Positions 1,393-62,536 of a DNA stretch of 64,000 bases are shown here, piece after piece. Location of the stretch: NCBI GenBank assembly GCA_002633005.1, contig NMRA01000336.1, positions 81,268-145,267 on the forward strand, read 5' to 3'. The position numbers and the translations under genes are program-made. How positions within the stretch are numbered: position 1 is the first letter of the stretch; each line of letters starts with the position of its first letter. The DNA is from Phoronis australis. Its lineage: Eukaryota > Animalia > Phoronida. The notes under the pieces were generated by a model. The model worked only from the letters and a program-made list of their open reading frames with translations, was not told where the DNA came from and searched no databases.

Positions 1393-1520
1393 CTTCGAAG
1401 ATGACGTTTACGGCAGTATGCTGTGACTTAGTGCCAGCCACGGCATGCAGCTCATACAAGCCTTCATCTTCAGGGACAGGTCTGGATATGGTGAGGATTG
1501 CTCTGGTCTTCCCTATCGTG
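1393..1520 (-). CDS. Exon 26 (2-1): Ig D4, second half, Cys-less (copy C); gene continues beyond the window start
   Basis: Acceptor attgtAG, donor GTGACT; TIGKTRAILTISRPVPEDEGLYELHAVAGTKSQHTAVNVIFE; 128 nt. Confidence 0.88.
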
Positions 1521-2947
1521 CTACAATTAAAAACACAACTTATAAGTCCAGAGTAACTTCCAACCAACAACAACCAAACGAGATAGTTAAATTCGCAATA
1601 TCCTTTTTATATTTTGTCTCAGCCGAGGCGTAGTAGAAAAGTCACGAGGTCAGGTAGTGCCACGTTTTCGCCCGTGCATCGAAAGGCGTAGGTCGTCTTT
1701 AACCGACACTAAATTAGCTTCTCCTAGAACGTTTCCTCAAATCTCACTTGGGTTGGCCAGGATAGTGCTGACCTACTAGTAAAAATGTCGAACAAATCAA
1801 TAAAACTTAACCGAAACCATTGTCAGTCGATTCCTGCTAAAGAATAGCCACCTGTTCACATCAGACAACGCCGGGTGATTCCCAGCAAGCCTCGTCCCTA
1901 AGCCTCAAGATGGCGCTGATAGGTATAGCCATTTGAGGCTTGTTTAGCGGAAATCACAATGAGCTACAGGTATCTCATTGGGAAATCATACACTCTTTCA
2001 TAGTGTTGCGAAAGTATAGATGGCGCTGTGTCAGAGGGTAGGGAAATCAATGTACCAGAGTTATGTCAACTTTGAAATTTTCTGCAGTATAATACAAAAA
2101 TCCAAATCAGAGGTATATGTGCATAAATTTAGGTCTAAATTATTGTAAAAATGATGTATTTTGATTTGGAAACAGATTAATTTCTATGGTGCTATCAATA
2201 AAACTGAATCGAAATTAAGAACGAGTAAAACTGCTTCAAGAATGGCAGCAACAACGCCAGTGATAATAATTAAAATTTGCCTTTCTTGAGGTTCTAATTT
2301 AGTTTCTGGAAAATCCTATATAAGTATATCTGCATTAGCCTACATCGCGCTCAGCGATCTCTAATGAAGAAGGATATATAATGCTCGCTGAGCATTCCAC
2401 TTATCCCGTAATCAGTATTTGTATGTCGCACTTCAGACAGTTTAAGTCGTGTATGATTGAGCGCACTTTTGAGTGAGGCAACATAGTAAATTTTTTACTT
2501 GTTTACATCGTTGCATCTTATTTGGAAACTTGAGAGCATATGTGAATCCAGACATTATACAATCCAGCCCTAAATTATCTAGAACATAACTTAATTTAGT
2601 GGTGCACATAAACTCGAAAAAACTACTTACCACATTCACCAATCCACACCCTAATGCAAATGAAGGTCTTATGGTTTACACGTTCAACTCATAATCCGGT
2701 GCAGATACGTTCACCCTAACGGTTACACTTACCTGTTAAATTACCACTACACCACGAGTCAACACTTAAAAACATAGTTTCTGTCTTTCTAAGTAGACAT
2801 GGAACTTCATTTCATCTTTTGCTTTTTACATAAGCATTTGTTGCTTTATTCAATTGGCTTAACGTACTATAAGTCATAAATTGGAACACAATACAAAATA
2901 CAACACGTTTTCAACATATTAACGAAGGCAAGTGTTATATAACCTAC

Positions 2948-3119
2948 CTTTGAAATCTCCTTGCGTCCCTTAATTCAACATTGCTTTTTCTCCATTTAAA
3001 GGTTGGCATCAGTCCCATTTGTTTTGGTCTCATGTCAACCATCAGTTTGACTTCCTTTGAAGTAGTGTTAAAATACACGTCATCTTCTACAGGCGACATT
3101 ATCACCAACCCGTAGTGGC
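2948..3119 (-). CDS. Exon 25 (1-2): Ig D4, first half (copy C)
   Basis: Acceptor gaacAG, donor GTAGGT; HYGLVIMSPVEDDVYFNTTSKEVKLMVDMRPKQMGLMPTFKWRKSNVELRDARRFQ; 172 nt like exon 18. Confidence 0.87.
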
Positions 3120-4126
3120 CTGTTCACATAAAAACAAACATTTCTTCAACAAAACGTCTTGAAAACATGTCGCAGGCCGTGGTTCCTCATTTTGGGCCTG
3201 CCTACATTATGCAATTAACAAGTGCATAGTGAACTCCCCCCCCCCCATGATACTAAACCACACGAATTTGGAGACACGCCTCATGGCTACAGGACCCCTT
3301 CCTTGCGAAACTAGGGCAACAACTGTGACACAGTTGGGGCGACGGAGAGTAGCTCGAAAGTGATGATGTACGGAGGGTAGCTCGAAAGTGATGATGTTAT
3401 CGTGAAAGTGTAAAGGTTGACAACTTTGAAGACCGGAGAGTAAAATTTGTCTCAAAATTTCTTATGAACTCAGGGCACCGTGTACTACATGGTTTTTTAA
3501 ATAGGACATTCAGTGACCATTTCGACTAGGCAGGTTGATCTTTCCTCATTGATGACTAGATACCAACAGAAAGGAATACTCTATTGTCGGATACTGTAGT
3601 ATTTTTTCGAAATACCTTGCACCAGTGAACGTAGCTGCTAGCAACCTCCGATGTCTAATGATAAAATTTTAAGAGTACCATCAGTCGTAGATATGTACAA
3701 TAATGTCTACTACAAAATGCGACTGCTTTTACAGCATTATTCAGGCCAGGCTTTATACAATGACTGCACTTGATTGTTTTCTACGCTTCCGCCGGATCAC
3801 CCAAGCGGCTAAAACATCTGATTGGTCTGCAAGCCAGAATACGTCATAGACAATCAATTAGATGTCTTAGCCATCATTACGACCAACTTACATTTAACGT
3901 AAGAACGATCTATCAACGCAGTTCAGTGACTGCCTCATGTCAGTGACTGTAAATTGTAATATACTAATCACAAAATTTAAATAAAAAAACTTGGTCTACG
4001 ACAGTCCTACAACAAAGGTGACACTACAAATATGTGAAAACCCAATGCCGTCGTTGACTTGTTAGCATCGCTCGACAAAAATCGCACCATCTATGTGACA
4101 TAATCTGATTGTGTTTAAAACCTTAC

Positions 4127-4313
4127 TTTGAACATCTAAGCTGAACTGTCTTGATTTTCGGAGGTTGTTCCTTTCAGCAGTGCACTTATAGGATCCGCCA
4201 TCTTCTTTTTGAACTCCGGAAATTTTCAGTTGGTTTTCCATAACATATTCCGTGTACTTGGAGGAATACTTTTGTTTCTTCGTGACGATTTCTTTTTGAA
4301 ATCTCATTGGTAC
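4127..4313 (-). CDS. Exon 24 (0-1): Ig D3, second half (copy C)
   Basis: Acceptor gtattAG, donor GTAAGG; VPMRFQKE...NQLKISGVQKEDGGSYKCTAERNNLRKSRQFSLDVQ, with the 'D.G.Y.C' motif. Confidence 0.9.
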
Positions 4314-5810
4314 CTAATACAAAAACCGGTTGATGGAACAATACGGTACTAACATTGAGTTCTTCAAAGGTGTTTGACAGTATTTGCCAATAAAACTGTT
4401 CCTGGATTATGTGTATGACGCACTTGCAATTGCTTCAACGTAGAAATAGCAGTGCGAGACTGTTATCTGCTACCATTAAGAACTCAATTTCTGACCAATG
4501 GGTAAATAGCTTCTGCCCTATTTTATATAATCATTTGTGATGTAGATCTATTTATCATATTTATCTGAATAGCACGGGCAAATTTAGAAGACCTTGATGC
4601 CTAAAAACTATACTGGTGTTGTCATCCCTAGTTCCCCGGGTGTTTTTCATGAAAAGCGACTCTTTGAAAGACTAGAGGCAGAAATTTGGTCTTAGGCTAC
4701 CACTTTACTATTGCCAAATGAAGGTTTAGTCATGTAACAACAGCTTCATAGAAATAATTTGTACACATTTTCTCAGGAAATAATTTGTACAAATTTTCCC
4801 AATAAGTAACAGTTAAGGGTATATAGTGATACACTTTATCCGTTTGCTGAAATGAGTTATAATTGTTTTACAGAAATAGTAATGTCAAATTTTTGTTTTA
4901 AGTCTTAAGTCACTTTTCATGAGAAAGACCTCTGGGCTTAAGACACCCAGATTTCTGAAAGTCTAATTTAAATTCTACTGCACTTGCTCACGCAGAGAAA
5001 CCGAAGTCATTATTAATAAATTTTGCTGAAGAGCCCGCATATATGCTCATCTACACTAAAGCTTTACAAGGCCCTAGACAGGTCAATTGTTATCTTTGCA
5101 TCTCTTTATGAATTGCCAAACTGAGAGCCTAAATTCATCTAATCTTTCCTTTTCGACATAACCACTAAAGTTAGTCGTGGGTGCTCACCCGTAAGATGAT
5201 ACTTGGCTTGGTGATGTCGTTCTGGTAAAACTACCTATGATTAATTTCTTTATCACTATTTAATATAGTCACTTAGCTTGGGAATACTAAAATTTACCAC
5301 ACAAGTAGCGTGCCAGACAGATCCTAGTCGGTAAACCAACCCTTTGGCTTAAACACTCCGTGTATCGAAAGTGTACTATTCATACCACACTAACGGGGTT
5401 AGACAGTTTTTGGTTCCATAAATACCTAAGGGAATTTAATTTAATTAGTACTAGCACATTCAATAATTAGTTTGCCTCCAAACTGGGAATTTCTTCTAAG
5501 TTAGGTCCTTTTCCCAGAATAAATGAATCACGGAAAACCTCACGATGGACCTTCGGCTCTGCTTGAGCTCAGTATTACCTAGTACATACGCGACCGTTCC
5601 ACGGGCATTGGAAAGGAATACATAGTTCTGCTCACTTTACTCAGTTTTTGAAATGTTACTTAAGATTAAATTCTAATAATTCTAATGAAAAATCTATTTC
5701 CAAGTGTGTTCAGCTTGAGCGCATAAATTAGTTACCAGTTGTTGAAAAGTCAGTTAGTCACTACATTTGCCCTTACGTTTGTTTTCGTCATCACGTCGAA
5801 CATAACGTAC

Positions 5811-5968
5811 CTTGCCGTTCATGTGTGGGTGGAGAGACCATGTGAGGCTAACTGACTCCATCTCATTAACATGCACTGAACAGGTCAAGACGACATTGGT
5901 ACCTTCTTCGAAGACTTGTTCCCCAGCATCATTTGCCGTGATGTCTGGCCTAGGGCTTGTCCTTTTAC
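5811..5968 (-). CDS. Exon 23 (1-0): Ig D3, first half (copy C)
   Basis: Acceptor ccgtAG, donor GTACGT; KRTSPRPDITANDAGEQVFEEGTNVVLTCSVHVNEMESVSLTWSLHPHMNGK. Confidence 0.88.
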
Positions 5969-7030: not shown

Positions 7031-7309
7031 CTGCAAAGTGTATTAGAAAGGCACGCATCTCTTCGCTCGAGTCAGACGTGGCGAGGCACACTTTTTCTCC
7101 TTTCACTGCCAGTGTTGGGTTCTCGATAATTACTCCTTCTTGCTTTCTGTAATAAACATTTTCACCGAATGGGACGGTATCGTTTTTCTCTATATCTAGG
7201 ACAACGACGTTGACTCTTGAACTCGTCACAAGGCACGGAAGGATGACGTAATCATCGCGATATATGTAAACGGCGAGGGGCTCTGAAGTCTTTAGTAACT
7301 GAACAGGAT
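7031..7309 (-). CDS. Exon 22 (1-1): Ig D2 (copy C)
   Basis: Acceptor ctttcAG, donor GTAGTA; DPVQLLK...YVILPCLVTSSRVNVVV...YRKQEGVIIENPT...GEKVCLA...FLIHFA. Confidence 0.92.
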
Positions 7310-9106: not shown

Positions 9107-9266
9107 CGTTCACAAATATGTAAACCGACGCATTTATTCCTGTTGTGTTTTCCAGAAAACACGTATATAATCCTGTGTGGTTGGCTACTAAACCTACAAT
9201 GGTGAGGTTATTCTTGAAGTCTTCTGTTTCTTCGTTGTAGATGTCTCCAGTGTCATACGTCACGAG
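9107..9266 (-). CDS. Exon 21 (0-1): Ig D1, second half (copy C)
   Basis: Acceptor ttttccAG, donor GTAAGC; LVTYDTGDIYNEETEDFKNNLTIVGLVANHTGLYTCFLENTTGINASVYIFVN; 160 nt like exon 7. Confidence 0.92.
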
Positions 9267-9746
9267 CTGGAAAAGATTTTCACCTACAACAGCCCTTATG
9301 TACTTTGTTTTCTTTGCTTGTACGATATACGGGGAGCAGACGGTACAGCTTTTCCAGACACTTCAACCAATGTTTACAAAAATACTCAGATCTTCCTCAA
9401 ATGTATAACAAAATTAATTTTTTTTATAAATGGATGGAAAGAACTCCATCTAAATGAAAATAAGGTTTTATTAGAAATAGTATCGAAATTTCTTTTCAAT
9501 ATCAATTCTCTTTGAGTGAGGAGATAAAATTATACATATGTAAAATAACTTATTTTGTATGCAAATGATTTATTAACATTTGTAATCATAACATCAATTT
9601 TTTAATTATATATCTGTGTATAATAATTGTATATAGATTTCTTTGTATTTATTTAACTACAGATACAATGTCTCATGACTCTTTTTGGGTATGTATATCT
9701 ATTGTACTGAATATTTCGTAATAAACATTTAAAAAAATATATTTTA

Positions 9747-10272
9747 AGGTTCTGTAGGACCTTCAAAAAATGGCAAAATTTGGCTGACTTCGAAGAATCA
9801 CATTATTTTCAGAAATGACAGACCGAATTCATATGAAACTTTCAGACACCATGGTTTATGTATTGTTCTCCATTAATAATTGTTTTTAAAAGTTACCTCT
9901 TTTGCTCGATGAGCAATCACAAAATTGGAATTTTATGATTTTTATGAAAAAACTCAAAAATTCCATAACACGAAAATCGAAATGATAAATTAGAAAACTG
10001 TAACAGCGTTTTTGAGATTTCATCTTGAACGCTCTTTACATCGAACGAACTTTTGTCACGCTATTGATACCGTTGGCTTGCTATGGATGTTCCTTCCTTT
10101 TTGTTAAATTTTACTAAAAAGACATGTTCACGTAATCCAAATAATAGTAGATTGGAGTAAAGTCAAATATTACAGGCTTTTTACTTTCAAAAATATATAT
10201 GCTTCTATTCAGTTAAAATCTACATAAATTCGGCTAAAAACACCGACAAGGTGAAAAGGTCCTGCATAACCT
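9747..10272. mobile_element. Non-autonomous TIR element (Kolobok-like termini)
   Basis: AGGTTCTGTAGGACCTT ... AAGGTCCTGCATAACCT (15/17 inverted match) in a TTAA-like context. Confidence 0.5.
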
Positions 10273-10370
10273 TATGATAAAAGATATTCGTCCAGTATTG
10301 CGTGCAGAGCTGATTAGTTAGTCAAGAAGAAATGTCGATAACAATTTAATATAAATTTGTTCAAATTTAC

Positions 10371-10519
10371 CTGTACAGAAGGAAGTTTCCACTGGAGAGT
10401 TTTGCTTCCAGTACAGGCAAGGTCCACAGTTGATCCTACGCCCACGTCTACATAGGGGTAACCGTTCTCATCTGCTTGCTTTGCACTTCCCAGCACGACA
10501 AGTTTTGGCTCCATAGGCT
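10371..10519 (-). CDS. Exon 20 (1-0): Ig D1, first half (copy C)
   Basis: Acceptor atttcAG, donor GTAAAT; EPMEPKLVVLGSAKQADENGYPYVDVGVGSTVDLACTGSKTLQWKLPSVQ, parallel to exon 6 (YPFIDV vs YPYVDV). Confidence 0.9.
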
Positions 10520-13705: not shown

Positions 13706-13833
13706 CGTCGTATTGTAATGTGACTTCTGCTTCTCCAATATACACAAGTTTGTGCGTTGCAACAAATATATAGCCGCCTGCGTCGTGTTCGGTTAGCCCA
13801 GAAATAATTAGCCGAAATGTTTTGCCGTCATTT
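13706..13833 (-). CDS. Exon 19 (2-1): Ig D4, second half, Cys-less (copy B)
   Basis: Acceptor ttttgcAG, donor GTAATT; NDGKTFRLIISGLTEHDAGGYIFVATHKLVYIGEAEVTLQYD; 128 nt. Confidence 0.88.
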
Positions 13834-14819
13834 CTGCAAAAATGCAAATTGTAGTTGACTTGCCGAGAGGGTTTCATTTCTAAAAGAGAGTGGTACGAGC
13901 AGAAAATCTGGTAATCCAGGTAATCTGGTCAAAATATGCGATGGAGCTTGATTTTCCAATATGAAGCTTAAAATACCGATGGGAAGGACGAACCACCTTC
14001 TGGTGCAAAGGAGGGACTCAAAACGCGAAGAAAGAACGAGAAATGCAACGACGAAGTAATGATGGGAAGGAGGAGGCTGTGAAAGGAATGCATTTGTTTT
14101 TGAGCACGCCATTTAAAGTGGCACAGAAAGCGAAAAACAAAGTAAACTCCATTATGGTTCTCTGCCGGTGAATCCGAAGTCGATCTGTTCGCCAAGCAAT
14201 TTTGTTCGTAAAGATTTTTAAATTTCTGTTGATGCCAAATTGTTTTTCCTTTAAATTGATGAAGATCATAATTCATCCAGGTCCATGTATATAGGACTAA
14301 TAATGAATTTTCTCAACAAGACGTATCTTGTTGAAAACTTGAAGTTGCAGGGCTCTCACCTGTCATCTTCTATGGAAGATTATTGACTGGCGGTCTCAGG
14401 TCTCCCAGCCATGGACATCACAGTATTAAGATGTCTATGCTCCCCGCTTTTCCCGTGGAACTGTGCCAGCTTGACCACTGTTGGACAGTAAGTGCAGTGC
14501 CCTATGCCAGGTCTTGGACATGTTAAGTCTCGCTCCATCAGACTGGTTCTAGGAGTGATTTTTTAACCGAGATCCAAAGGTCTTTATACCACGCTCAAAC
14601 CAGTTATTCTCGATCCTAGACAAGGAAAACAATGGTTTGAGTGCGGTGTCAAATAGGCCTTTTGGATATCGGACAAACCTTCCCTAAACCATTCTGGTGG
14701 AGTGAGATTTAACCTGTCTAAAACCTGGCTGAAGGCATTGGAATTATCATACAACAGAGGTCGCAACCTCCCATTAGTTGGAATTAAAACCCATTCTTCG
14801 CGATCTCATCCGCCACCCT

Positions 14820-14940
14820 TCGGCTGTCCGAGCTTGGTATGGATCATCAAGTCTATACAAAGATGATTTGCGTTGTGTGTAATCTGAACAAAGCCAATGG
14901 TTTTCAGAGCTCTGTATGTTTGATTCTGCTTACAAACACG
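14820..14940 (-). mobile_element. Possible APE-endonuclease remnant of a decayed element
   Basis: RALKTIGFVQITHNANHLCIDLMI resembles the 'gf.Q....T.....IDl' APE motif; surrounding frames are broken. Confidence 0.3.
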
Positions 14941-15303
14941 AACGCTAATGATAGTAACCGCCTAACCGGTCATTTCTAGTTGAGGTTGACCTTTCACTAG
15001 GGATTGGTGGATTGGTTACTAAGGACGTGGACAACTCGGGAGAGGGTATTGTTTCAGGTGTGCATCGTCTTGCATGACTAGTTAGGTGTCCTGGCATAGT
15101 CTCGTTGAGTGGGTATATGGACAAGATGAATACGGGGAGGTTCATCATTCGGATATCCATTTTCGGTCAACCAGGTATTGCGTTTCATTTGAATTGTGAA
15201 TGCGAGGAGGCGCCTTCACGCGTTAACTTGCCATTTGGTCGATAACTCAAAAAGATGACGGCACAAAGCTACGCACGACTTCGAATGCTTCAAACTACCT
15301 TAC

Positions 15304-15475
15304 CTGACTTGATGCTTCACACCATCGTTGCTAAGTTCATAGCCATTCAAAAACCACTTCCCGATGATCGATGCAGGGGGTGTCTGGTCATAGAATACTA
15401 CCAATTCTCTTATTCGCGAGCCCCAACCGAAGTTGATTATTGGTTTGTCCACGCGCAGCGTAATGCTAGGCATTT
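15304..15475 (-). CDS. Exon 18 (1-2): Ig D4, first half (copy B)
   Basis: Acceptor gctgcAG, donor GTAAGG; EMPSITLRVDKPIINFGWGSRIRELVVFYDQTPPASIIGKWFLNGYELSNDGVKHQV; 172 nt. Confidence 0.87.
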
Positions 15476-17042: not shown

Positions 17043-17196
17043 CGTGGACCTTTAACAAAAACGGTTCAGAGGTTAGGTTGAACTCTTTGTGGGTACAAGT
17101 GTAATTACCAGTATGAGACATTTGAATCTTACGTAGACTACACTCACTAGTAGCGTTTGAGTAGTATCCATACGAACGTATAGTGTATTGGGAAAT
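17043..17196 (-). CDS. Exon 17 (0-1): Ig D3-like, second half (copy B)
   Basis: Acceptor tttttacAG, donor GTAAGT; ISQYTIRSYGYYSNATSECSLRKIQMSHTGNYTCTHKEFNLTSEPFLLKVH. Confidence 0.88.
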
Positions 17197-19463
17197 CTGT
17201 AAAAAGTAACGAACCACTGGAACAGTAGGAAGATTACTCCATATATCTTCCAAAAGCATCCTGTGTTTTTATTACAATCAGATATGATGAAAACTCAGTT
17301 AGAAGGCCATTGTCAGCTCTTGTTACTGCCTGATCCCTTCATTTAAGTTTCTGACTGACGATACATGCATCACATAAGTAAGAACGGTGACCTCGTCTAT
17401 TTTAAAGACCACAGCACAAACGTTATCGACAAGTGAACTGGCTGCCCTGCTTCATATTATATTGACTTTCGTCACAGGTGCAAATGTAACGAATAAAGCT
17501 TTCCTGCCATCACCTCCAAAATATAAGTTCAAACGCTTGTAAAAGTTTATGTTAAATTTATGAAGTGGTGTGAATGCCGTGTTTCGTATGTACACACAAC
17601 CGAGTAAAACATGAAACGCCCCACACCACGATCTCTTTTTGGTCAATGATTTTCACTGTAAAAAAACAATATTGTCTTACTCTGAGTTCATGTGGTCATA
17701 GTACTCATAGTGAAAGGTACTCTTAATAATATAAAGCTACAGATAACCATTGTAATCAGTGCCCAGTAATCCTTGTCCATCAGATGTAGTGTAACAGACT
17801 AATTTGATACCAATGTTAACAAAAGTCGATCAATCAGGAACCTAATTTCTTGGATTTATATTTGTTGGAAAAAAGGAAGAAAAAACGGAAAGGAAAGTTT
17901 GTGCGACCTGAGGGATAAGCGCAGTGGTAGGAGGAGGACGTTGGATGAATGCAACTGGAAGAGGAAAGCTGGCCTGTGCCGAAAAATAAGCTTCTCTGCC
18001 TATGTTACGGAGACAACTTTAAGACCAGACGTGCTGTCGTCACAGACAAGAAAAGTATAATACAAAATTTAACTATATTATACATATTAAATTTAACTTG
18101 TTAAATGCATTTGTAGTCATTATTTTGACACGTGTCATTTTTTTATTTTTGTATCAACCCTTTCGGTTTAGTTTACATAATCCATTTCTATTTATATCCT
18201 CCGGGTTCTACTTTTGTATTCATACACCTCTCTTCTCGACACGTGATTGCTCACTCATATTTCCTTGTTCAATATTGCCACCTACCTCCTTGTCTACAGG
18301 ACCTCTACGTTTTTTTCTCAGTATTTTTTACACCCTACATCCCAGGTGCCTGTTTTTATTTTTCTTATTATACATTGTCTGTTACACCTTTCAGGCTTTT
18401 CTTAACTCTTTTGTTTTTGTTCCAGTACTAAGGGCACTTCTACGTACACACCGGTGGCGCCGTTTTTCCATGCTCACCTTGCAGTTTTCTATATTTCTTC
18501 AATTTACGTCATAATAGGTGACATTATTACTGGATGAGGCAATGGAGACAGAATGTCCAATGGTCAAAGTATGTTCCCCTACTGCAGTTGGTCTGTCTAG
18601 TTTCTGGTGTTCTTTGAATCTAGTTCCAAGCGACGTTTGGTTTCCCCAACATCATTGGCAAAGAACAGAATTGGTTTGCACGTAAGACCAAATAATCCAT
18701 AAAAAATCAGGACAGAGCGCTCCCTTTTGAACCGGGACCCTGGTGTACATTTACCTCCACTGTACTCTAACATACATACTAAGCGAACGGCGGGAAACAC
18801 GTCATTCATCGACAAAGGCCTGGCGGACCAGGCCGAAATGTCTGCATCCAACTAATTCGTTTCTGAGTAAGTGTTTTTTCTTATTCCAATGCATCGAGAG
18901 ACCAATGACAAACATTTTTCCCTAAATTGAACATGCCTGTACATAATTCCCTTGATAAAACATGCACTGGCTCTAAATACTATCTTTCCAGAGATTATTA
19001 TTTTATGTTTAGTTATCATTTTACACTCGCATTTCTGGATCGTTATCGGTCATGATGAATGATCTTTATTTCGCTTATATATGGTCTCCTTTTTATCTCT
19101 GGGCACGGAGCTTGCGACACATCTATCGGGACATAGGTTGAACATAAATAGCTTAATTTGAAACAACTAACCAACGCTGGTCGTACAGCGCAGGTAGCCA
19201 AGCCGTGGGCTGCTTAGGCTTCGATGCTTGCTCTTCGTAATTTCTGAATTAAAATGTTTTTCATAGCCAGGCTGCTTTTCATTAATGGCGTGATAATATA
19301 GCAAAGGACTAGACAGTTGTGTCATGCCATTGGCTTAGTTTATTTGCTGTCAAATCAAACTATGTGTCATATCTACGCAAAGGACCACCTAGGTATTCCG
19401 AAGACCATGGCGTAGGTTTTCTTGCAAGCCAAGCCACAGCCTGTTAAAAAATGTGTACAGTAC

Positions 19464-19615
19464 CTTGCTACATATCCCGAAGGGCACGTTCCACTTGAAG
19501 CTGACATTGACCTCTTTACCGACTTCAACCGTGCAATTCAAGGTGATACTGTCGTGTACTAAATAATCACTCTGTCTGTTACCTATAACCGGACGCTGAC
19601 GTCGTACATTTTTCG
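19464..19615 (-). CDS. Exon 16 (1-0): Ig D3-like, first half (copy B)
   Basis: Acceptor gtttcAG, donor GTACTG; KNVRRQRPVIGNRQSDYLVHDSITLNCTVEVGKEVNVSFKWNVPFGICSK, D3-like 'LNCT......V.F.W..P'. Confidence 0.88.
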
Positions 19616-20117: not shown

Positions 20118-20251
20118 GTGTCACCAAAATTTTCCTGTACAACGCAATTTCACGCTGTTCGGTGCCTACCATAACACGGCACACATACATGTTGTGGGTT
20201 CTTAAGCTTGCCTCCCGCACGGCGTACAACACAACATTGTTATAATCGGTG
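20118..20251 (-). CDS. Exon 15 (2-1): Ig D6, second half
   Basis: Acceptor cttttAG, donor GTAAGA; TDYNNVVLYAVREASLRTHNMYVCRVMVGTEQREIALYRKILVT. Confidence 0.85.
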
Positions 20252-20972
20252 CTAAAAGAAAAAATGTAAAGGACTGTTACATGTAAAAGAGACATACGCA
20301 GATATCCTAATGTTAACAATTAACCTGAAGTTATAGTTGTGCAGTGCTCTGTGCGTAGGACAAGTACCGTAATGGAGCGTTGACCAGTTACGTCAACCGA
20401 AATTTGTCACTATTTACCCCTCCCATCTTGATATAACCCCCTCCCCTGTCAAGCGTCTAATTAAGTCTAATTATGTGATCATAGTCAAAGACATCCTCCC
20501 AGTTTAGGCAGTGCTGGAATAAGTCTGTTTGTGTACATGTTTATAACGTAAACTTAGTGAAACGTGATCAAATCTTGGAATCCCGGAGGAGTGAAGCGGC
20601 GGGTCCCAGTTTTGGAATTAGTTAATTCCGCTAGATGATGAATCAATTTCCCAACGATATTCTAATAAACCACACGATGACGTTACCATCCCCCAGTCAT
20701 CTTTTCCAAACTCCTCCCCCTCGAGTGATGACGTAATATCTAAACGCTCCCTAAGTGAAGCTCTGGACGAAGCTTTGTTCCGCAGGCCTGAGACAATAGC
20801 ATGCATTTGTAGAGAGAAATCGCAACTTATGGAACGGAAATAGGTAGTTCTATACCATGCTTTACGAATTATATCCCACAATTTAACATTCGAACTTCAC
20901 CGAGCGATCACTTGAGTGGCCGCCATTTTGCAAGGGTACGCTAATAAAGTCTTGAGCATACACGCCTAATAT

Positions 20973-23900: not shown

Positions 23901-24844
23901 ATTGTCTGATTCTTCAAGTACTTGAGTATAAGTGCCCGTATCCACTCTCCTCTCTGTCGGCATAATAATTGTCCAATTCTCGCCTAATATTGTCATTGTC
24001 TTCTGACCTGCAGTGTTCCGACATTGCAAATGATTGTCAAGCGGCCAACCGTCTTCCACCCATTGCATCATTTGGCGGGAAACTTAGAAATAAGTAATTT
24101 TTCTTCAAAATTAAAAAAGTTGCCACTATTTGGCATAAAAAGTGCCTATTTAGCAAGATTTTATGGTATTCGATTCATATTAGCTAACTGAAACCTGAAA
24201 AAGTAAGAAAATGCATGGTGGGAACTCTTTAAGCGGTTACCTCTTGGGTTGATTTAGCTTAATTTTTAACCCTTTTTGATAATTGTATGGCAGGGACACG
24301 TACTCCACCATTGAAATTGCCTGGCATTTAACAGTTGTGCCATGTACAGTGATGCTGAACATCGTGCAATTAGTTTCAAACGGTTACCTGGTGGGTTCAT
24401 CTAGCTCAACTCAGGTATTTGGGCGTGTCTGACGCGGCTAACCCACCACTAGGTTTGTCTGGCTGTGTTCATTCGTGATACCTGGGCTCACGGTGAATAT
24501 TTTGCAACTGGTTTCACGCGGTTACCTCTTTGATTGATCTAGCTCAATTTTTTCACCTTGTTTATAACCGTCTGGCTGATACTCCCCTCCACTGAAATTG
24601 TCTGGCAGTGACCAATTTTGATACATTGGATTACGGAGGAGGTTTCCAAGGCGGTTTGAAGTGGTTATCAGAAAAGTTGATCTAGCTCAATTTTTGAGTG
24701 TCATTCTCTTGGCTCCCCTGACCACACCCACCAAAGCGAACCTGCCAGACGACCATTTCCAAGCATAAGGATACCCACAGAGCACTGTGGCACCAAAGAA
24801 AATTGGTTACCTTTTCATGCCCAAAAGAGTTGTGGGATCCCGGT
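20973..24844. mobile_element. About 3.9-kb foldback-like DNA transposon with long (about 600 bp) modular TIRs
   Basis: ACCGGGATCCCA...GGGCATGAAAAGGTAACC at the left end is inverted at 24803-24844; the arms carry repeated GAGCTAGATCAA-like modules; contains the N gap. Confidence 0.85.
23484..23808. other. Assembly gap (325 N)
   Basis: Run of n. Confidence 1.
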
Positions 24845-25090
24845 CTATAACGCTCTTCAGGTGTGTGACTTAGGCTCGTTTAAGCTCACTTAACGGCATT
24901 AGAATTAACTTAATGTATCTTGTAAATATTATGAGTCGGAGTAATCATTTCTGACATGAATAATTACGGGGTTCACAGTTTACCACTTCGAGTGCACTTA
25001 TGGCAGGCTCAGGACACAACTGTCGCTGTGGTTTCCCTTTTTGCTATGTGAGTAACACTGCGCAAAAATTCTGAGCAAAAACTAACTTAC

Positions 25091-39558: not shown

Positions 39559-39651
39559 TTCGAGCAGTCGCAGAAACGGAAATTTGATGAAAGTTTCTTT
39601 AACCTGCTTCGTGGTGCAGTTTTCCCCTACTTTAAGAAGATTGATGCTTAC

Positions 39652-39806
39652 CCCTGATGTCTTTGTTCGGTAATCCCACGACAGTTGTACGTTAAGTAGA
39701 TCAGTGACTGCCTGCGCTTCGACTTGGCATTTAAGTGTGGCTTTGTCACCTAGTCGATAGGCGCCTTCGTATGCTTCGATGAATGGTTTTGGCGGCAAGT
39801 CGTTCC
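39652..39806 (-). CDS. Exon 9 (1-0): Ig D3, first half (copy A)
   Basis: Acceptor acgtAG, donor GTAAGC; NDLPPKPFIEAYEGAYRLGDKATLKCQVEAQAVTDLLNVQLSWDYRTKTSG. Confidence 0.88.
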
Positions 39807-41018: not shown

Positions 41019-41303
41019 GTAAATATATAACAAACAAGGAGAAGGAATCCGTGCGTGACCCTAATGCAGCTTTGCAATACATCATTCCTTGCATGTGTAC
41101 TGTTGGGCTCCGAACGGTTACTCCTCGCTGTTTACTGTACCCTATGTTCGACCTGAACGTGAACTCCGTCATGTCGTTGCCGTTGATAAACTTTACTTGC
41201 GCCTTTGAGTTAGTAACGCGACATGGTAAGACAGCTGGGACTTTATGATACACCACTTTTATCGTCATGTGACGGGACTTCACCAAGAATAACCTTTTTG
41301 CAT
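41019..41303 (-). CDS. Exon 8 (1-1): Ig D2 (copy A)
   Basis: Acceptor ttttctcAG, donor GTACGT; ...PAVLPCRVTNSKAQVKF...YSKQRGVTV...GMMYCKA..., with the 'PCRVT' VEGFR/PDGFR D2 signature. Confidence 0.92.
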
Positions 41304-43318: not shown

Positions 43319-43320
43319 AA

Positions 43321-47936: not shown

Positions 47937-48096
47937 CATTCACGTATATGTAGATGGTAGTATTTTTCGTTTCGTCGCTTTCGAGTCTACATGTTTTCGG
48001 GCCTGTATCTTCAGGAACCAATTTTCCGAAGATTAACCAAGTTTCGTACTTGCGAGTTTCGTTGTTGTATTCACGAGGTGATCCGTCAGCTGGTTC
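47937..48096 (-). CDS. Exon 7 (0-1): Ig D1, second half (copy A)
   Basis: Acceptor ctttcAG, donor GTATCA; EPADGSPREYNNETRKYETWLIFGKLVPEDTGPKTCRLESDETKNTTIYIYVN, with the 'DTG...C' and 'IYIYV' D1 ending. Confidence 0.9.
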
Positions 48097-48341
48097 CTGA
48101 AAGAACACAGACAAGGAACAATTCATGCTCTTAATGAATCAGTTAGATAATCATGTTCTAACCATTACTGTACAATGTTTGTTGTGCATGTATATAATGC
48201 AACAATTAGACGTGATACATTATAAGGTGCCACCTTTTTGACAAATGTGCATGTCAGAATATAGTCTTACAGTATTTTTAGTTGTATTGTATTGTTTTGT
48301 TATTCAGTTTGATTGGCATGACCCCTGAGTTAAGTACAGTG

Positions 48342-48927
48342 ATGATGTAATTTGTTTACTACAAAATAGTGTAGAACTTTCTAGAAAACTCTAGCATGAC
48401 AGTAATTAATGCAGTCTGGAATATTCTAGAGACTAGTACATGTTTGTGGAATGGTTGGGTATATTCAGGAAAGTTCTAGAATGTGCTTGAATTGATGCAA
48501 AGTTCCAGAACAATGCATTCGGCTATAAATACACAAGCACGGGTTTGTGTTAGTCAGATCAAGTCAGTTAATCCTGAGTTCAAGAAAGTTAATCAAGAGA
48601 TTACAGTTGAGTTGCAGTGAAGAGAATCAGCAGTTACAGCGGTAGTCAATAGAGAGCCAGCTACAGAGACAGCAGGTTATTGAATCGACGAGTGTAACAG
48701 TTGCTGAACGTGTCTCAGAAGTTCATCACAAGTCAAGGCTTCGCAGCATTGGTTGGAGCATAAACAGACATTACGTCGGACGTTTTGTTTGAGTAGGCTT
48801 GTGAACGTACGGTCGGGATTAATAAAGGATTAACTCGAACCAGTCTTCAGTCAATCATCGCACTGAAAGCTATTAGCACCGGTCTGTAACAACCTGCGCC
48901 CACCCACACACGGGGAAAAACGTGACA
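48342..48927 (+). mobile_element. Probable solo LTR; related fragments at about 37380-37620 and 28720-28800 on the minus strand
   Basis: TG...GTGACA ends, TATAAAT near 48524, AATAAA at 48821; no clean TSD; left boundary approximate. Confidence 0.55.
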
Positions 48928-48978
48928 GTGCAATACAGTTCCAGGGTTTGCGACCCCTGAAGAGTTGGTAACACTCAC

Positions 48979-49106
48979 AGTCCAGTTGACGGGAGCGTCG
49001 CCTGCACAAGTGATAGTGAGAGATTGACCGGCTTCCACGTCTATGAACGGATATTCTTCTGCACGATCAAGCTTGACAGTGACGTTTAACTCTGGACTTC
49101 CAGGAC
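48979..49106 (-). CDS. Exon 6 (1-0): VEGFR/PDGFR-type Ig D1, first half (copy A)
   Basis: Acceptor ccgcAG, donor GTGAGT; PGSPELNVTVKLDRAEEYPFIDVEAGQSLTITCAGDAPVNWT. Confidence 0.88.
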
Positions 49107-49158
49107 CTGCGGCGAAATATCCAAAGTAAGTATATTTTCTAACAACCCCTTAATTTTC

Positions 49159-52100
49159 ATCGCTATGGGATGTTCAATTTCGCGTACTTTGTTTTGTCAA
49201 TTGAATTGATACTTGACGCGACATCTGACTGGTTAAGTGCGTACTACGGTTCATCCCATGAAACAACATCAGTGACCACATTCATAGACGACACAATTGT
49301 TCTCAAGAATCCAAAAGCAACGCAACACGTTCTGAATAAGCTGACTGAGTTTTCGAATGGTCACATGTGAAGGCAAAATCAGCAAAACCCACCAGAAGCC
49401 TGTCTTTAAATAGTGTGAAACTGGATGCGAACAAGATAGCTGGGAATGACATCTCTACTGTCTGTGATCAACCTGTCAAAAGTCTTAGCCGGTGGTATGA
49501 TTGCAACGTTAAAGATAGCTCTCGGAAGGAGGAAGTCAATTAACTTTCGAAATCGGGTTTGAGTACGACAGACTCAAAGAAACTTTCAAAGATTGAATTT
49601 TCCAGTATGTAAGTGCCAAGATAACATGGCCTTTACAAATATATGATATACCAAATACATATGTTGAAAAAATGGAAATACCAATTGATAAACACACAAA
49701 AGAGCCATTCCACGAGATAACCAAAAGAAATCAAAAAATCACTTCAGGGGTCATCTTCCAGAGTCAGCCTAAACTTTGTGTATGAAGAAAATGACACGTT
49801 TTGCATACCGAAAACAGCAATTTTCCAATTAATAACAGGAAGATTGCATACAATGAGAGGATTCTTGTAATGGGATTAGGAAGTAGGACATCAACATTTT
49901 AGGGACCATAATGCTGTCTGACATATCCGTTTCACCCATTGAGCGTTCATAACTAACCATGGGTCATAGACTACACAGGCACAAGTGCTGGCATAACTGC
50001 TTGGTGCCAATACCCAAAACGGTTGACGACTTTAGACACAATTTTAAAGGCTGACATGAATATTTCATGTGATTTTAATAAAATATTCTTATGTGTAGAA
50101 TATCTCAAGGCAATTTGGCTTTTATTTGTAAAAAATTCTTTTGAATTAAGGGCTTGGGACTGTATGAAGCGGTCGAACCGAAATAATTTTTCACTTAGAA
50201 GACAAAGCTCACATCACAGGAAAGGCATCAATGTCTGAAATACAAAAATAAAAAAATATCAAAATCGCGGGGTGCATTCAAAAGTTATCTCTTTTTATGT
50301 GTCAAATTTTGACTTTACTTCGGTCGTGTCGGCCATCTTGTGATGTCTGCAGTACATGTTACGGGTTCAAAGTGCTTAAAAATTATATTCACAAACATTC
50401 TAGCAATAAAATTTGTTACACATATCTTTACCTACCATTCTGTATAATCCAAGAGTATACACCAGAATTAAATCATGCAGGTGTAACTTATTGAATTGAG
50501 TGGTTAAGGTGCTCACAATTCACGTTGGACAACATGACGGCTTTTCTGAACTGAAAGACATGTTCAACGGGCTACATTGTCATCGGTGAAGATTTAACTA
50601 CAATAGGTACATTTGCAGACACACTGCTACAAAAAGCAGTTTTGTACAGTTTTCCGAGGCTTGTGCCATAACTATTATGAGTCTCCAATTTATTTCAATG
50701 TGAACTGCCCATTCAGCTAAATTCTGTTGAAATTGTTCTGAAATCGTTTTTTTTTTTGTTTGAAAGTTAACTTCTGTTCATGTTATGATTATGTGTCACA
50801 GCACGAAACATATTTTTCTAACTTCTATGCACAAAAGATGCTTTTGATTCATGTTTTGTAACTTACTTGGTTTACAGAAATAGGTTACATTTGGATTATG
50901 AAATGTAAAGCTTACTCGGATCTTTCTGTGTCATAGTTCATATTATTCATTATCATGCTAGTCAAATTCTAGTTTAAGGACGAAAACTTTTATGGTACTC
51001 AGTCGCCATGTTAACAATTATGGATGTTTACTTTCATACTTAACGTGAGCTTGGTTCACCCAGTATTGTTGAACATTTCCAAAGTACGTTCTGAGTTACT
51101 TACTGTGGCAAAAGGCTGTTATGATCATTTTAGTTTGCGTATTAATTTGTACCGAGATCACTTTGCTAAGAGCAAGCCTTAGCTACAATGCAAATTTTGA
51201 AACCCGTTTGTCCAATATATCTCTTATCGGAGTGTGACAACAAGTGCCAAAATCAGAGTTGGGTGAAATCGGTTAAACGATCAGCATCCTGCGAAAATGA
51301 CAAAACTCAGAAGTGACTTTATATATTTTATGTAATGAATGATTACCAGATAATAAGGTGAATGTTACCAGGGTACCAGTTAGCAGCTGCCGGGGCGGAG
51401 AAAAGTTAGACGCATGAACGAATTCCAAAGTGCTAAAACTGTCTCTGGTGTGGCAGCAGACTCATTCGAAAACATGCAGTTTTGGGCTAAATTACAAGTA
51501 AGACGTGGAAAACAAAAACGGCGCTAGAGTGCAGCATGTAAACCAAGTTTCGATATTAATCAAAAGTCATCCTCATGTACGATAGTAGACAAAAAACAAA
51601 CTATGGTAACATAATTTGATTAATGCTGACTCGTCGTTCTCAAACATGATTGTGCCATCGTTTCTTCGATGGAAACGTTTTGGCCAAATTTCATGAAATT
51701 TCACCAAAGAAATCTACTTATAAAAATTGCCACCAGGGGGCCAGCAGTATTCCAAGTATATAAAAATTGTCGTGGACTGATTTGATCACCCTAGAAACAT
51801 ATTTGCAAAAATTAATGAAGCTCTTTTATGAGGTTTGTGAGATACAGATACATACTGTCCGTAGTCAGGCTCTATAAAATACACGATGGTATGTCATTTC
51901 TATGGACTGTTGCTTGAAAATACACAAAAAGCCCGTTTTTATTATTTTTATTTTCTTTGTATGACAGCAAACTGATGAAAAGTACCATTGGAAATCACCA
52001 ACACCCCGCAAACTGGCACCTCAAAAATATCTCAAAATCAAAGACAAAAAATTGGCAAATTTCACCGAATTTTGGCACTCCATTGAAAGTTAACGGAAAC

Positions 52101-53297
52101 CCCATTTGAAAATTCAAAGACTGTCTTCTGATAGAAATGTTCATGTCTATATAAACATTATAAATATCTTTTTTCCCGTTCTTTTAAGCCGTTTTAAAAA
52201 AAATTCGCTAACTGAACCTTTTTAGGCCAAAGTATTCATGATGTTCTACCTTAAAAAATAAAGGCCCAAAAATTTTCAAATAAGCACTTTGAACATATCC
52301 CACCAGGATGTATGTACACACACATTTTTTTCAAGATCTGAGTGGCCCTAGAATCGACCTTTTGGTGCTCTCGTGGAATGATCAGACCCATCGCCAAGGT
52401 ATCGGGTACAGTCGAATGGAAAATCAATTTTGGTCAAAAGCTAAACTTCAAGAGAGGAAGCAACTCTGCTCTCAACTGAGACAGGAGGAGGACAAGAAAA
52501 TATTTCAGTCTGCTGTTCAACAGCAGGGTCAATGGACATCATGGAATCCGCGATGGAGAGTAAGCTGAATTGGTCAGGTTTATAGGCAATGTCCAATAAA
52601 CATCTGAGTTATGCCATGCATCTAGCCTACGACTAACTACCAACTCAAACCAACTTGATAAAGTGGAGTCTTGTTGACACTCACCTCTGTGTGTTGTGTG
52701 GCCAAAGCTGCGACCTTGTCTCTTATTTTATCGAGTTGCTCTGTGTCATTGTCAAGCGGAGTTTTAAAAAGATTGCGGAGGCCTTGGCGTTGGCAATCAG
52801 TAAAACATCCAAGTCAAAGCCAAGTGATGTCATACAATTTGTCACAAAGGGTTATAATTCCAAGGTTGCTCGTACACGTAGACAGTACAGCATTGTGTTT
52901 GGAGGAGTAATATACTCGAAGTTAGCCGCAGATTTAAAGACTGAAGGCTGTTACCCTGAAGTCGTCACTGAAAGTGGGCAACGCCCAAATATTGTAATCT
53001 TGTCGGCATGGACCAAGAAAATGGTTCTAGTCAAAATAACTTTACTATATGAACCTCGTATTGAGGAGAGTCGTGAATTCAAGATGGCCAAGTACAAGGA
53101 CTTATGTCAAAACTTGCGAAATAAAGGGTATACCATAGAAGTTGAAGCTAGAGGCGTCCCTAGCTCTTCTTTATAGACTGTCATCAGTAAGACAAGTTTA
53201 ACACTCAGTGAAAAGTACTGATTTGTCAGACAGATATGTATTGCAGCTGAGGTAGCGTCAAAGTAGATTTGGTGGAGGAGAAATGAAAAGACCTGGC
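49159..53297 (+). mobile_element. 5'-truncated, decayed RLE non-LTR retrotransposon (R2/HERO-like), split by an insertion of about 2.4 kb (about 49961-52389)
   Basis: RT motifs IAMGCSIS..LF, TFIDD, KPTRSL, QPVKSLSRWYD, WPLQIYD; zinc knuckle CVLCG; RLE RPNIVILS..KKMVLVKIT..YE..IEESREFKMAKY..VEARG; tail AAEVASK*IWWRR. Confidence 0.88.
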
Positions 53298-53608
53298 GGG
53301 ATGCCTTGTAGTGGCCAGGCGTTTCTTAAATCCCCTGTTAGTCAGAGGCAGACATCCATCCGGCAGTTGTTGGCCTTCTTTGGTGCTGGTGGGTGTGGGC
53401 CGCCCTCACCTACAGTGTAAAAAGTCAAAGGCCCAAAACACTGGTGGGGGTCTTCTTCTGAAGACTGCCTCTGGCTTTGCAATCTTGTTGGTTGTTTGTC
53501 TTCCTAGTTTTTGTTTAAACGTAAATCAGTGCACCTACTACACTCTAAAAATCCACTTGCAGGAATTCTACATCTCAAATAACGAACAATGCTTACCCTA
53601 CAACTTAC

Positions 53609-53696
53609 CAAACAAACATGGCCCCTTTCTAGGATCTCCATGGAATCCAGCCACGCACCTTTCACAGTGGTCTCCTTCTGTGTTGCTCTTGCAGTT
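53609..53696 (-). CDS. Exon 5 (0-1): laminin-EGF, second half
   Basis: Acceptor ttctccAG, donor GTAAGT; [29 protein letters not shown] matches the LE consensus 'NC..NT.G..CE.C..GF.GDP....C'. Confidence 0.92.
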
Positions 53697-53916: not shown

Positions 53917-54006
53917 CTTGCACTTTCCTGACGCGTCACATTCGCTTGAACGGCAATTACAGAAGCAATGCGCTAGTTGCAAGTGAAACGGAAAGTCAGC
54001 GCAATA
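53917..54006 (-). CDS. Exon 4 (0-0): laminin-EGF, first half
   Basis: Acceptor tttttttcAG, donor GTTGGT; YCADFPFHLQLAHCFCNCRSSECDASGKCK. Confidence 0.85.
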
Positions 54007-55541: not shown

Positions 55542-55778
55542 TTCGCATGACAAACCAGAAAATCCGTCAGGACACACACACTGTTCTACGGAGTACACAC
55601 TACTGTTCCTTGAAGACGGGGGAGCTGTTTTCATAGACACACGAAAAAGATTGAATGACACTTGTGCTGTGTTGTACTTGGTGCGAAGTGATATAGCGTC
55701 CAAGTGAGACAAAACGCGTAGGAATTTACTCCGAGAAACGTGTACCCCAGCCATAGTATTCTCATCAAAAAACGAAGT
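55542..55778 (-). CDS. Exon 3 (0-0): laminin IV/B C-terminal part and start of laminin-EGF
   Basis: Acceptor ttttcAG, donor GTAAGT; TSFFDENT...SRSKFLRVLSHLDAISLRTKY...VEQCVCPDGFSGLSCE is the classic LamB end plus 'VE.C.CP.G..G.SCE'. Confidence 0.92.
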
Positions 55779-61090: not shown

Positions 61091-61174
61091 CTCTGCCAGA
61101 AGAATGGTATGGCTTTGGTATTCATTGGGTATTTTCTCCTTGCTATTCATGTGATACAGGCTCTCGTTACCTCC
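61091..61174 (-). CDS. Exon 2 (0-0): laminin IV/B domain, middle
   Basis: Acceptor ttttAG, donor GTAATT; GGNESLYHMNSKEKIPNEYQSHTILLAE joins both neighbours in frame. Confidence 0.8.
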
Positions 61175-62437
61175 CTAAAACGAATGCACCGTTATGTCAA
61201 TGATGAGGAGAAATACAAAGTCAGCAATGACACCAACTACTGACATTACCGAGTACGTATTTTTTTTATATTACAAGGGCGAATCACAAAGTAGAAATCA
61301 ATACGTCTTACATTTTATCGACTGCAAAACACTAAAGCAACCAAACGCGTGCCAACCAAACAATGCTGGAATTTCGTGAAGGTGACAAATCGTGTGTTGC
61401 AACGGTACATATTCGCAGTCGGAAGAACATGCAAACAACTTCTTAAAACGGACCCATCTGCGGCGGCGAACTTCATATCCACTTTCGTTCAAAAGGAGAC
61501 GAAGCCCAACTCAAGAAACGCGGTGAGACTTTCTAACTGTGCTTTCTCAAGGTCAATTCAATGCTAAAGCGCGGGGAAGCCCTGCTGACTATTTATAAAC
61601 ATTTTTTAAGTTTGAATATCATCACTTCAAAAATATTTATTAGATTCTAACTTGAAAATTTGTTACTAAAGCTGAATGCAAGCTCAAAATAAAACTATTA
61701 CAAAAAATAACCGACCTTATTTTACATTGCACAAGCGTGTTTTTACAAAAAAGCGTCATGTGGTTGAATGTTTTAGACAGGTCGGGTTTTTCGGCAAAAA
61801 GATTGTATTTATGGCAAACGAATTTTCCAAGAGGTTTTGCCTGTGTCATAAACCTGAGACGAGTGTAGAATTATCTACTTATAAATGACATTAGATCACT
61901 TAGGCAAAATCGTGCAAGCTTTATAAGTTCAAATAATTCCTTAATACACGACGGTGTTGTGTATTCACAACCAGTATGTTCACCAGTCGTTTAAAGAGCA
62001 ACAATGGGGTAAATGAGCAAGAGACATTGCAATGATGTATAAAAAGACGGCTACAATTAAGGATTGGTCATGTCCTATGTTCAGGCCGGCAAAAATGAGA
62101 CAAGGCTTACAACCAGAATTAACAGGTTAGCTTTCCATTGACCGAAATTCTTGTTAAAAAATCGAGAACACCCCAGGCCACGCAAAATCACCTGAGTGAA
62201 TTAGACGAATGTGTCTTGAGCATGCCCAGGAGCTTTCTTGCATAACTCGGCTAAAAACCAGAGAAATAAGTGCATTCTTTTCTAGGTTGTGCAAAAACAA
62301 TGTCACAGCTACTAAGGTATATGCCCACAGCCTGTTGTAGATAATTAGAGGCGTTTTTGCACCGGTCCGGATGTTAGGGTGAACCAAAATCGACTACGCG
62401 TACTTGGTGTATTATAGACGAAGTGCAGTTACTTAAC

Positions 62438-62536
62438 TCTAAATTCCACATCTGTTTCTTTTTCTTGGGTCGCAGTGCCCACACCTCTGACATTGAACCG
62501 GAATAGATACTGCAGTGATCCTCCATAGAACCTTAG
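62438..62536 (-). CDS. Exon 1 in window (phase 0-0): laminin IV/B domain, N-terminal part
   Basis: Acceptor tttacAG; translates LRFYGGSLQYLFRFNVRGVGTATQEKETDVEFR, matching the laminin B 'YGG.L.Y' and 'DV.l.G' motifs; donor GTTAAG is weak. Confidence 0.8.

Follow-up and report, generated by a model that had tools for sequence, protein, structure and literature searches.

In known systems, perlecan and the receptors for vascular endothelial growth factor (VEGF) are separate, cooperating molecules. The class V receptors (VEGFR/PVR) have seven immunoglobulin (Ig) domains, D1 to D7, with D1 directly behind a signal peptide in plain VEGFRs, and D2 is the ligand-binding type of domain. In laminins, the laminin-EGF (LE) modules are succeeded by further LE modules and by a coiled coil rather than by Ig domains. 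At the border of its domains III and IV, perlecan (HSPG2, Trol, UNC-52) has the order laminin B, half LE, LE and then Ig, domain IV being made of similar disulphide-bonded repeats. Described here is a gene in a 64,000-nucleotide (nt) window from the phoronid Phoronis australis (contig NMRA01000336.1, positions 81,268 to 145,267; all positions below are those of the window), in which a perlecan-like laminin B/LE head is spliced onto VEGFR-type Ig domains.

In the available parts of the sources concerned, Ig domain IV of perlecan follows domain III (PMC4398486), domain III binds FGF-18 (PMC6266596), the laminin B (L4) domain of laminin alpha and gamma chains is set in an LE module, as it is here (PMC6744579), and known VEGFRs bind ligand through D2-D3 and make receptor-receptor contacts through D4, D5 and D7 (PMC7765180).

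Ectodomains of the VEGFR type are not limited to about seven Ig domains, as the first-pass annotation of this window had assumed. Sea-urchin VEGFR-10-Ig has ten, and annotated sea-star kinases have more than 20. The retrieved sea-urchin receptors of ~1,800 amino acids (aa) have a membrane helix and kinase at the C-terminal end, and so do the sea-star giants (Acanthaster XP_022091569.1, 3,070 aa; Patiria, 3,083 aa; Asterias, 3,373 aa). These echinoderm proteins resemble the present model in their duplicated ectodomain blocks and in having far more than seven Ig domains, but they repeat only D1-D3 whereas the model repeats D4 too, and they start with D1 near the N-terminus, none of them with laminin B or LE. 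In the databases these sea-star kinases (P0001, P0037 and P0040; 3,070-3,373 aa) are named 'uncharacterized' or 'hemicentin-1-like', and the literature searches, which did not target them, turned up no paper on them. Receptor-type Ig domains are able to work without a kinase in soluble VEGFR-1 (sFlt-1) and in PDGFRL, which is secreted; unlike the model, both are short and have no laminin module. sFlt-1 is a decoy, and soluble VEGFR decoys exist, according to the available part of PMC7765180.

A laminin B/LE head spliced onto Ig domains

The gene model was rebuilt from six-frame open reading frames and splice-site scans of the window. It comprises 26 minus-strand exons running from 62536 to 1393, all with an AG acceptor and a GT donor, which splice into 4,273 nt encoding 1,424 aa without a stop, where the first-pass annotation had given about 1428 aa. 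The frame is open at both ends, beginning within the laminin B domain and finishing on a phase-1 donor; both gene ends lie outside the window, the start of the laminin B domain being upstream, and no signal peptide was found within the window. Every domain border, the LE-to-Ig border included, is a phase-1 intron, as exon shuffling requires, and the model is therefore compatible with the exon shuffling proposed earlier. The receptor signatures quoted at that time were all located (IYIYV in exon 7, PCRVT in exon 8 and W.WQPC in exon 13), as was the F strand lacking cysteine, which occurs in three D4-type domains (exons 12, 19 and 26). When 1,689 six-frame fragments of the window were scanned with profiles built from VEGFR domains and hemicentin repeats of other species, the 16 top matches were all model exons on the minus strand, and neither an extra Ig exon nor a kinase remnant was found in the introns.

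One transcript joins the perlecan-like module to the VEGFR-type Ig domains. Three public raw-read RNA runs of a single study, carrying the same species label (X1-X3), were used, with about 18-19% of each mapped to positions 37850-57800 at 92% likeness. This region covers seven of the 25 junctions; the two above 55778 and the 16 below 37925, those of the fourth Ig domain (A4) among them, were placed from sequence alone. All seven were spanned by reads in both X1 and X2, in the orientation that a typical stranded library would give for a minus-strand transcript. The LE-to-Ig junction at 53609>49106, which the first-pass annotation had singled out for a check in RNA, was spanned by 33 reads with 26 starts in X1 and 45 reads with 32 starts in X2, reaching up to 74 nt on the shorter side. 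The other counts, for X1 and X2 respectively, were 81 and 48 (55542>54006), 90 and 62 (53917>53696), 62 and 59 (48979>48096), 64 and 58 (47937>41303), 53 and 39 (41019>39806), and 88 and 74 (39652>38087, the sum of two rows skipping the same 1,564 nt). In X1 and X2, laminin exons 3 and 5 were covered to a depth of about 72-97, and Ig exons 8 and 10 to about 88-119. In X3, no reads were present at any of the seven junctions and depth was zero in the repeat-free exon bins of both halves; none of the seven was present in a contig run (X4). The reads share the species label but differ from the window at many sequence positions, and are therefore independent of the joins made in this assembly. Exons 3-10 and the spliced LE-to-Ig join are established in RNA.

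The first-pass annotation had read the head as LamB-LE-LE. Laminin B and LE were indeed found, but more precisely the head consists of the C-terminal 128 aa of laminin B, the second half of the interrupted LE (5 Cys) and one whole LE (8 Cys), with 13 of 13 LE cysteines intact. Exon 3 matched residues 196-263 of perlecan (chains 9i5a and 9i5b, E-value 1.5e-6), these two sequences being its sole match among solved structures at E up to 1. Exon 5 matched residues 302-326 of 9i5a, in the same order and 39 residues past the exon 3 match, and also the LE domains of netrin-4 and laminin gamma-1. A search of the ESM Atlas placed exon 3 in laminin B clusters, named laminin gamma-1-like. Taken by themselves, exon 1 had no Pfam or PDB sequence match and exon 2 no Pfam match. 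Perlecan domain III has laminin B set within LE modules and Ig domains behind them; the model shows this arrangement, with one unit visible. Counterparts of the upstream LDLa domain II and the downstream laminin G/EGF domain V of perlecan would both fall beyond the window. The LE is spliced straight to Ig exons and not into a laminin-type LE array and coiled coil, and the first D1 follows an LE exon instead of the signal peptide of a plain VEGFR.

Further RNA signals were seen around the chimeric intron. At 52502-53167 within it, same-strand depth was 5.5 (X1), 4.2 (X2) and 0 (X3), with a strong donor-like site at 52683; the splice scan found no in-frame cassette with a good acceptor to account for this signal, which is possibly an alternative exon or an alternative end. 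Just downstream of exon 7, at 47174-47839, gene-strand depth was 6.5 (X1), 5.1 (X2) and near zero (X3). An alternative splice route through intron 5 is possible; there are 72 joints beyond those listed.

Identity and duplication of the Ig domains

To each of the twelve Ig domains, positional profiles for D1-D7 were applied, built from 16 retrieved receptor ectodomains with 12-16 rows each; the rows dropped were lamprey (D1-5), two fly (D1-2) and single rows without D4, D5 or D7. The control profile comprised 50 of 150 hemicentin repeats, in place of perlecan domain IV repeats. Eleven domains scored best on one positional VEGFR profile, in the order D1-D2-D3-D4-D5-D6-D3-D4-D1-D2-D3, and the twelfth (B4) tied with the control (D4 22.0 bits, hemicentin 22.5). 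The scores were modest (10-47 bits), yet a collinear order of this kind would be hard to obtain by chance. The profiles support the first-pass assignment of these domains to the VEGFR/PVR type rather than to plain I-set repeats. Neither a uniform I-set run, as in hemicentin, nor ordinary tandem repeats, as in perlecan (for which hemicentin stood in), were found, only B4 tying; in contrast to perlecan domain IV, several of the domains have no cysteines.

The domain types and their order, D1-D6 and D1-D4, are those of VEGFR/PVR, and Pfam family PF21339 occurs twice. The best solved-structure matches were to VEGFR-1 and VEGFR-2: B1 matched VEGFR-2 residues 84-118 (D1) through exon 21, all six PDB matches of B2 were VEGFR-1, and exon 8 (A2) matched VEGFR-2 weakly. 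In the ESM Atlas, B2 fell into generic Ig clusters. With Pfam run on the 26 exons singly, 12 had no family at E up to 0.1. The model differs from VEGFR/PVR in having at least 12 Ig domains, in the laminin B/LE head before D1 and, within the window, in lacking a D7 (none by profile scoring), a membrane helix and a kinase; its D5 also lacks the canonical cysteines. This domain, A5, is the weakest call. It aligned to the D5 of 14 receptors, and its predicted structure was an Ig-like sandwich (predicted local distance difference test, pLDDT, 74) that matched VEGFR-3 D5 in a fold search (Z 8.6, root-mean-square deviation 2.8, 97 residues aligned), with which many unrelated sandwiches tied. No VEGFR was among the top 50 Foldseek matches for A5, and exon 13, which encodes it, had no PDB sequence match.

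Exon 26 of B4 (1393-1520) has Arg and Asp at the positions of what we take to be the receptor-dimer salt-bridge motif of KIT D4 and VEGFR D7, for which no confirming paper was found. Neither A4 nor A8 has the Arg, and it is also missing from D4 in the 13 reference receptors that gave a match.

Copies of a domain type have similar exons. The D1 exon pairs are 128+160 and 149+160 nt, with a common 160-nt second exon, the D2 exons are 285 and 279 nt, the D3 copies have phases 1-0-1, and the D4 pairs are 181+128, 172+128 and 172+128 nt, B4 equalling A8 in exon lengths and phases. The model contains two D2-D3 pairs. The duplications are old, since A1 and B1 are 32% identical and A2 and B2 28%. Both trees gave the A1-3 and B1-3 blocks as sisters (support 93 and 97), next to a scorpion receptor and a protein without a name and apart from the echinoderm rows. 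The 15-row tree was relied upon because two sea-star rows in the 30-row tree begin with a D3-like domain instead of D1; these were quick trees, and the tool warned that two long model branches meet. Forced grouping of the model blocks with the echinoderm blocks was rejected in the approximately unbiased (AU) test (p-AU 0.0056), which was made on a quick tree for a group named after the first tree and is weakened by long branches. In a tree of D3-D4 pairs, poorly resolved and with A7-8 not placed, B3-4 grouped with A3-4 (Shimodaira-Hasegawa-like approximate likelihood ratio test, SH-aLRT, 99). These trees make it likely that the giant ectodomain arose by an expansion independent of the echinoderm one, and so point to a second origin of giant VEGFR ectodomains.

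Precedents and the nature of the encoded protein

A profile of the two D2 exons, searched against 1.84 billion representatives, gave 22 matches, the best being the 3,070-aa Acanthaster protein, which has six D2 domains besides its membrane helix and kinase; three others (P0002, P0004 and P0018) were rejected as chance repeats. The Acanthaster kinase region, used as a query, retrieved 85 proteins of 1,688-5,373 aa, comprising sea-star giants, sea-urchin, vertebrate and insect receptors, and hemicentins. Neither laminin B nor laminin-EGF was among the Pfam matches listed for these 85, and no laminin B was found in 115 retrieved proteins, against which the laminin B and LE of the model scored at most 0.3 and 6.2 bits, respectively. 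A word-index search of proteins up to 2,000 aa (E up to 0.001) confirmed none of 13 candidates for exon 8 and none of 18 for exon 3, which is weak evidence of absence, and none of 376 pattern matches in metagenome contigs was confirmed. The search aimed at laminin B returned nothing at all, and orthologues could therefore have been missed. A laminin B-VEGFR fusion appeared in no title or abstract from the full-text literature searches, which excluded most subscription papers and left supplements unopened. The first-pass annotation had not recognised the architecture from any described family, and it was found nowhere else in the databases or literature searched. Among the matches, a cockroach protein (P0003, XP_069689011.1, 'hemicentin-1-like') has five D2-type and five I-set domains and a C-terminal hydrophobic stretch, and no kinase.

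The chimera is real, with laminin B/laminin-EGF spliced onto VEGFR-type Ig domains. It is a new domain architecture made from known parts, supported by transcripts and predicted through twelve Ig domains; the laminin B head is the new part, and the giant ectodomain has precedent. Perlecan and VEGFR modules stand in one transcript with a read-backed join. Many chimeras claimed for invertebrates do not pass this test; according to the available part of PMC4967905, the novel architectures described from invertebrate genomes are often prediction errors.

The chances are about even that the gene encodes a giant single-pass kinase receptor, with a membrane anchor and kinase predicted beyond the window. 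VEGFR-type receptors with more than seven Ig domains are already known, which makes the giant ectodomain less new and tips the balance towards a receptor. More tentatively, and with rather less than even confidence, we propose a receptor tyrosine kinase in which a perlecan front is fused to a multiplied VEGFR ectodomain, forming a matrix-anchored, perhaps matrix-triggered, switch with two growth-factor sites on a stalk of at least 12 Ig domains. For the kinase receptor as such, to which the even odds apply, the proposed history is that a phase-1 intron came to link the 5' portion of a perlecan-like gene to a VEGFR/PVR gene, just behind the signal-peptide exon of the latter. Ig exon blocks would then have been duplicated inside the gene to give D1-6, D3-4 and D1-4, and the last block may extend, as it does in the sea-star giants, into D5-D7 and on to a membrane helix and kinase. 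A single recombination followed by block duplications is the simplest route, and one breakpoint suffices; it would leave the receptor 3' end in place, matching the retrieved long proteins with repeated D1-D3 that end in a helix and kinase. In such a receptor the laminin head would hold the tip in the basement membrane, one or both D2-D3 pairs would capture dimeric ligands of the platelet-derived growth factor (PDGF)/VEGF family, and signalling would depend on, or be localised by, contact with the matrix. The relatives predict that the head would bind matrix and that D2-D3 would bind ligand. In its working the protein is probably a VEGFR that carries a perlecan head. Should a kinase follow, it would be a natural matrix-tethered receptor kinase, and a route to asking what laminin L4 domains do, whose function a 2019 review gives as unknown in its available part (PMC6744579).

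That lack of a known L4 function weighs against the proposal, as do several results. No membrane helix was found within the 1,424 aa (best 19-residue hydropathy 1.72, inside B2), and no kinase match among the window fragments scanned. The set of 85 proteins is skewed to kinase-bearing precedents because the query was a kinase region, and the cockroach protein provides a repeated-D2 protein with a membrane helix and no kinase. The Ig domains have diverged, sharing about 25-30% identity with their relatives; in A5 both canonical Ig cysteines are missing, although W.WQPC is kept, and B2 is charged where the F strand of VEGFR-1 is hydrophobic, whereas A2 keeps a hydrophobic F strand like that of VEGFR-2, positions that we take to be ligand-contact residues in the D2 of VEGFRs. 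Read support covers seven of the 25 junctions, and among these the chimeric one fell below the average count of its six companions (33 against 73 in X1, 45%; 45 against 57 in X2, 79%).

This last shortfall, the unexplained signal at 52502-53167 in intron 5 and the reported frequency of prediction errors among novel invertebrate architectures (PMC4967905, available part) speak for an occasional read-through linking a perlecan- or laminin-like gene to a VEGFR-like neighbour, or for a mis-join in the assembly. This explanation is very improbable and already largely refuted by the 78 junction reads with 58 start sites in two runs, by the similar depth of both halves and their joint absence in X3, and by the failure to find a signal-peptide-like exon, or AATAAA/ATTAAA between 53608 and 52000. 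The gene could also be divided further down: the chimera, running from laminin B to A8, would stop somewhere past exon 10, and a separate, ordinary VEGFR/PVR gene would open with B1-B4. The read mapping does not reach the junctions below 37925, the D1-type B1 would be a normal first domain, and intron 14 contains a 325-N assembly gap (23484-23808). The gap, however, separates the two exons of one domain, A6, the phase-1 GT donor of exon 19 fits the phase-1 start of exon 20, and the 3.2-kb intron 19 yielded no exon with an ATG, hydrophobic stretch and donor (a strict pattern that can miss real ones). Two tandem genes are accordingly improbable, and the laminin-VEGFR fusion stands either way.

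A secreted, matrix-bound trap or presenter of growth factors deserves more weight, unlikely as it is. It would be a perlecan-like protein whose Ig domain IV is replaced by VEGFR blocks, with no anchor, like a tethered soluble VEGFR-1; if so, it would be a natural multivalent, matrix-anchored growth-factor trap. Consistent with this, the head lines up in order with perlecan domain III and the Ig domains start where domain IV begins in perlecan (PMC4398486, available part), soluble VEGFR decoys are known (PMC7765180, available part), several D2 matches were named PDGF-receptor-like protein, two D2-D3 pairs suit trapping and the 1,424 aa contain no membrane helix. Two breakpoints would be required, however, if the perlecan C-terminus were kept, none of the 12 Ig domains is a perlecan-type I-set repeat (the B4 tie excepted), the search pattern for a Ser-Gly glycosaminoglycan site had no match in the model, and a membrane anchor is present in the proteins retrieved with repeated VEGFR blocks. 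Such an anchor with no kinase, as in the cockroach protein with its five D2-type domains, I-set domains and hydrophobic C-terminal stretch, would make the protein a decoy or an adhesion receptor, its VEGFR-derived Ig domains serving mostly as a long stalk that has lost growth-factor binding. The long branches and lost consensus residues of the model domains agree with this, but the D1-D6 and D1-D4 runs are whole and in receptor order, which a mere spacer would not need, and we consider it a poor prospect, if a slightly better one than two tandem genes.

Feature coordinates and other elements of the window

Positions of the exons, the chimeric intron and the Ig domains of the model, with supporting evidence
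Feature	Positions	Strand	Exons	Evidence and remarks
Exon 1, middle of laminin B (L4)	62438..62536	minus	1	AG/GT flanks, in frame with exons 2-3
Exon 2, laminin B continued, 28 aa	61091..61174	minus	2	phase 0-0; splice-site scan, in frame
Exon 3, laminin B C-terminal part and start of interrupted LE	55542..55778	minus	3	Pfam Laminin_B E 3e-9
Exon 4, end of interrupted LE and first half of whole LE	53917..54006	minus	4	both junctions in reads, Cys pattern
Exon 5, second half of LE	53609..53696	minus	5	ends phase 1; Pfam EGF_LMN_ATRN E 4e-9, EGF_laminin E 7e-6
Intron 5, chimeric junction	49107..53608	minus		4,502 nt, GT-AG, phase 1, skipped by X1/X2 reads
Ig A1, D1-type	47937..49106	minus	6 (49106-48979), 7 (48096-47937)	D1 28.5 bits vs hemicentin 5.4
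Ig A2, D2-type	41019..41303	minus	8	one exon; Pfam VEGFR-1-like_Ig-like E 5.5e-8; D2 45.8 bits
Ig A3, D3-type	37925..39806	minus	9 (39806-39652), 10 (38087-37925)	D3 28.5 bits
Ig A4, D4-type, Cys-less F strand	30804..33201	minus	11 (33201-33021), 12 (30931-30804)	D4 18.4 vs 10.0 bits
Ig A5, D5-type	26134..26445	minus	13	one exon; D5 10.5 bits
Ig A6, D6-type	20118..25280	minus	14 (25280-25091), 15 (20251-20118)	D6 18.2, D3 13.9 bits
Ig A7, D3-type	17043..19615	minus	16 (19615-19464), 17 (17196-17043)	D3 30.7 bits; acceptor 17196 chosen among several candidates
Ig A8, D4-type, no Cys	13706..15475	minus	18 (15475-15304), 19 (13833-13706)	D4 21.4 vs 14.1 bits
Ig B1, D1-type	9107..10519	minus	20 (10519-10371), 21 (9266-9107)	D1 46.1 bits
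Ig B2, D2-type	7031..7309	minus	22	one exon; Pfam VEGFR-1-like_Ig-like E 3e-9
Ig B3, D3-type	4127..5968	minus	23 (5968-5811), 24 (4313-4127)	D3 47.0 vs 32.8 bits
Ig B4, D4-type, no Cys	1393..3119	minus	25 (3119-2948), 26 (1520-1393)	ends phase 1

A 179-codon stop-free frame on the plus strand at 52637-53173 had no Pfam match; its end presumably resembles the restriction-like endonuclease tail of non-LTR retroelements. In intron 14, inverted arms of ~500 nt with 92-94% identity (20964-21473 and 24343-24853) lie around a 2.9-kb stretch with the 325-N gap, and are possibly those of a DNA transposon with long terminal repeats. The octamer TAGGCCTA occurs four times in the window, against 0.8 expected from base composition. 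It is enriched in some invertebrate deuterostomes, and a connection there would sit oddly with an Ig-block tree near a scorpion receptor.

Exon 10 is bracketed by an 872-nt inverted repeat of 100% complementarity (35357-36228 and 38687-39558), each arm of which holds a tandem 98-nt repeat. This is either a very recent duplication or an assembly artefact. The repeat could fold the pre-mRNA around exon 10, which is frame-shifting; reads still join exon 10 to exon 9.

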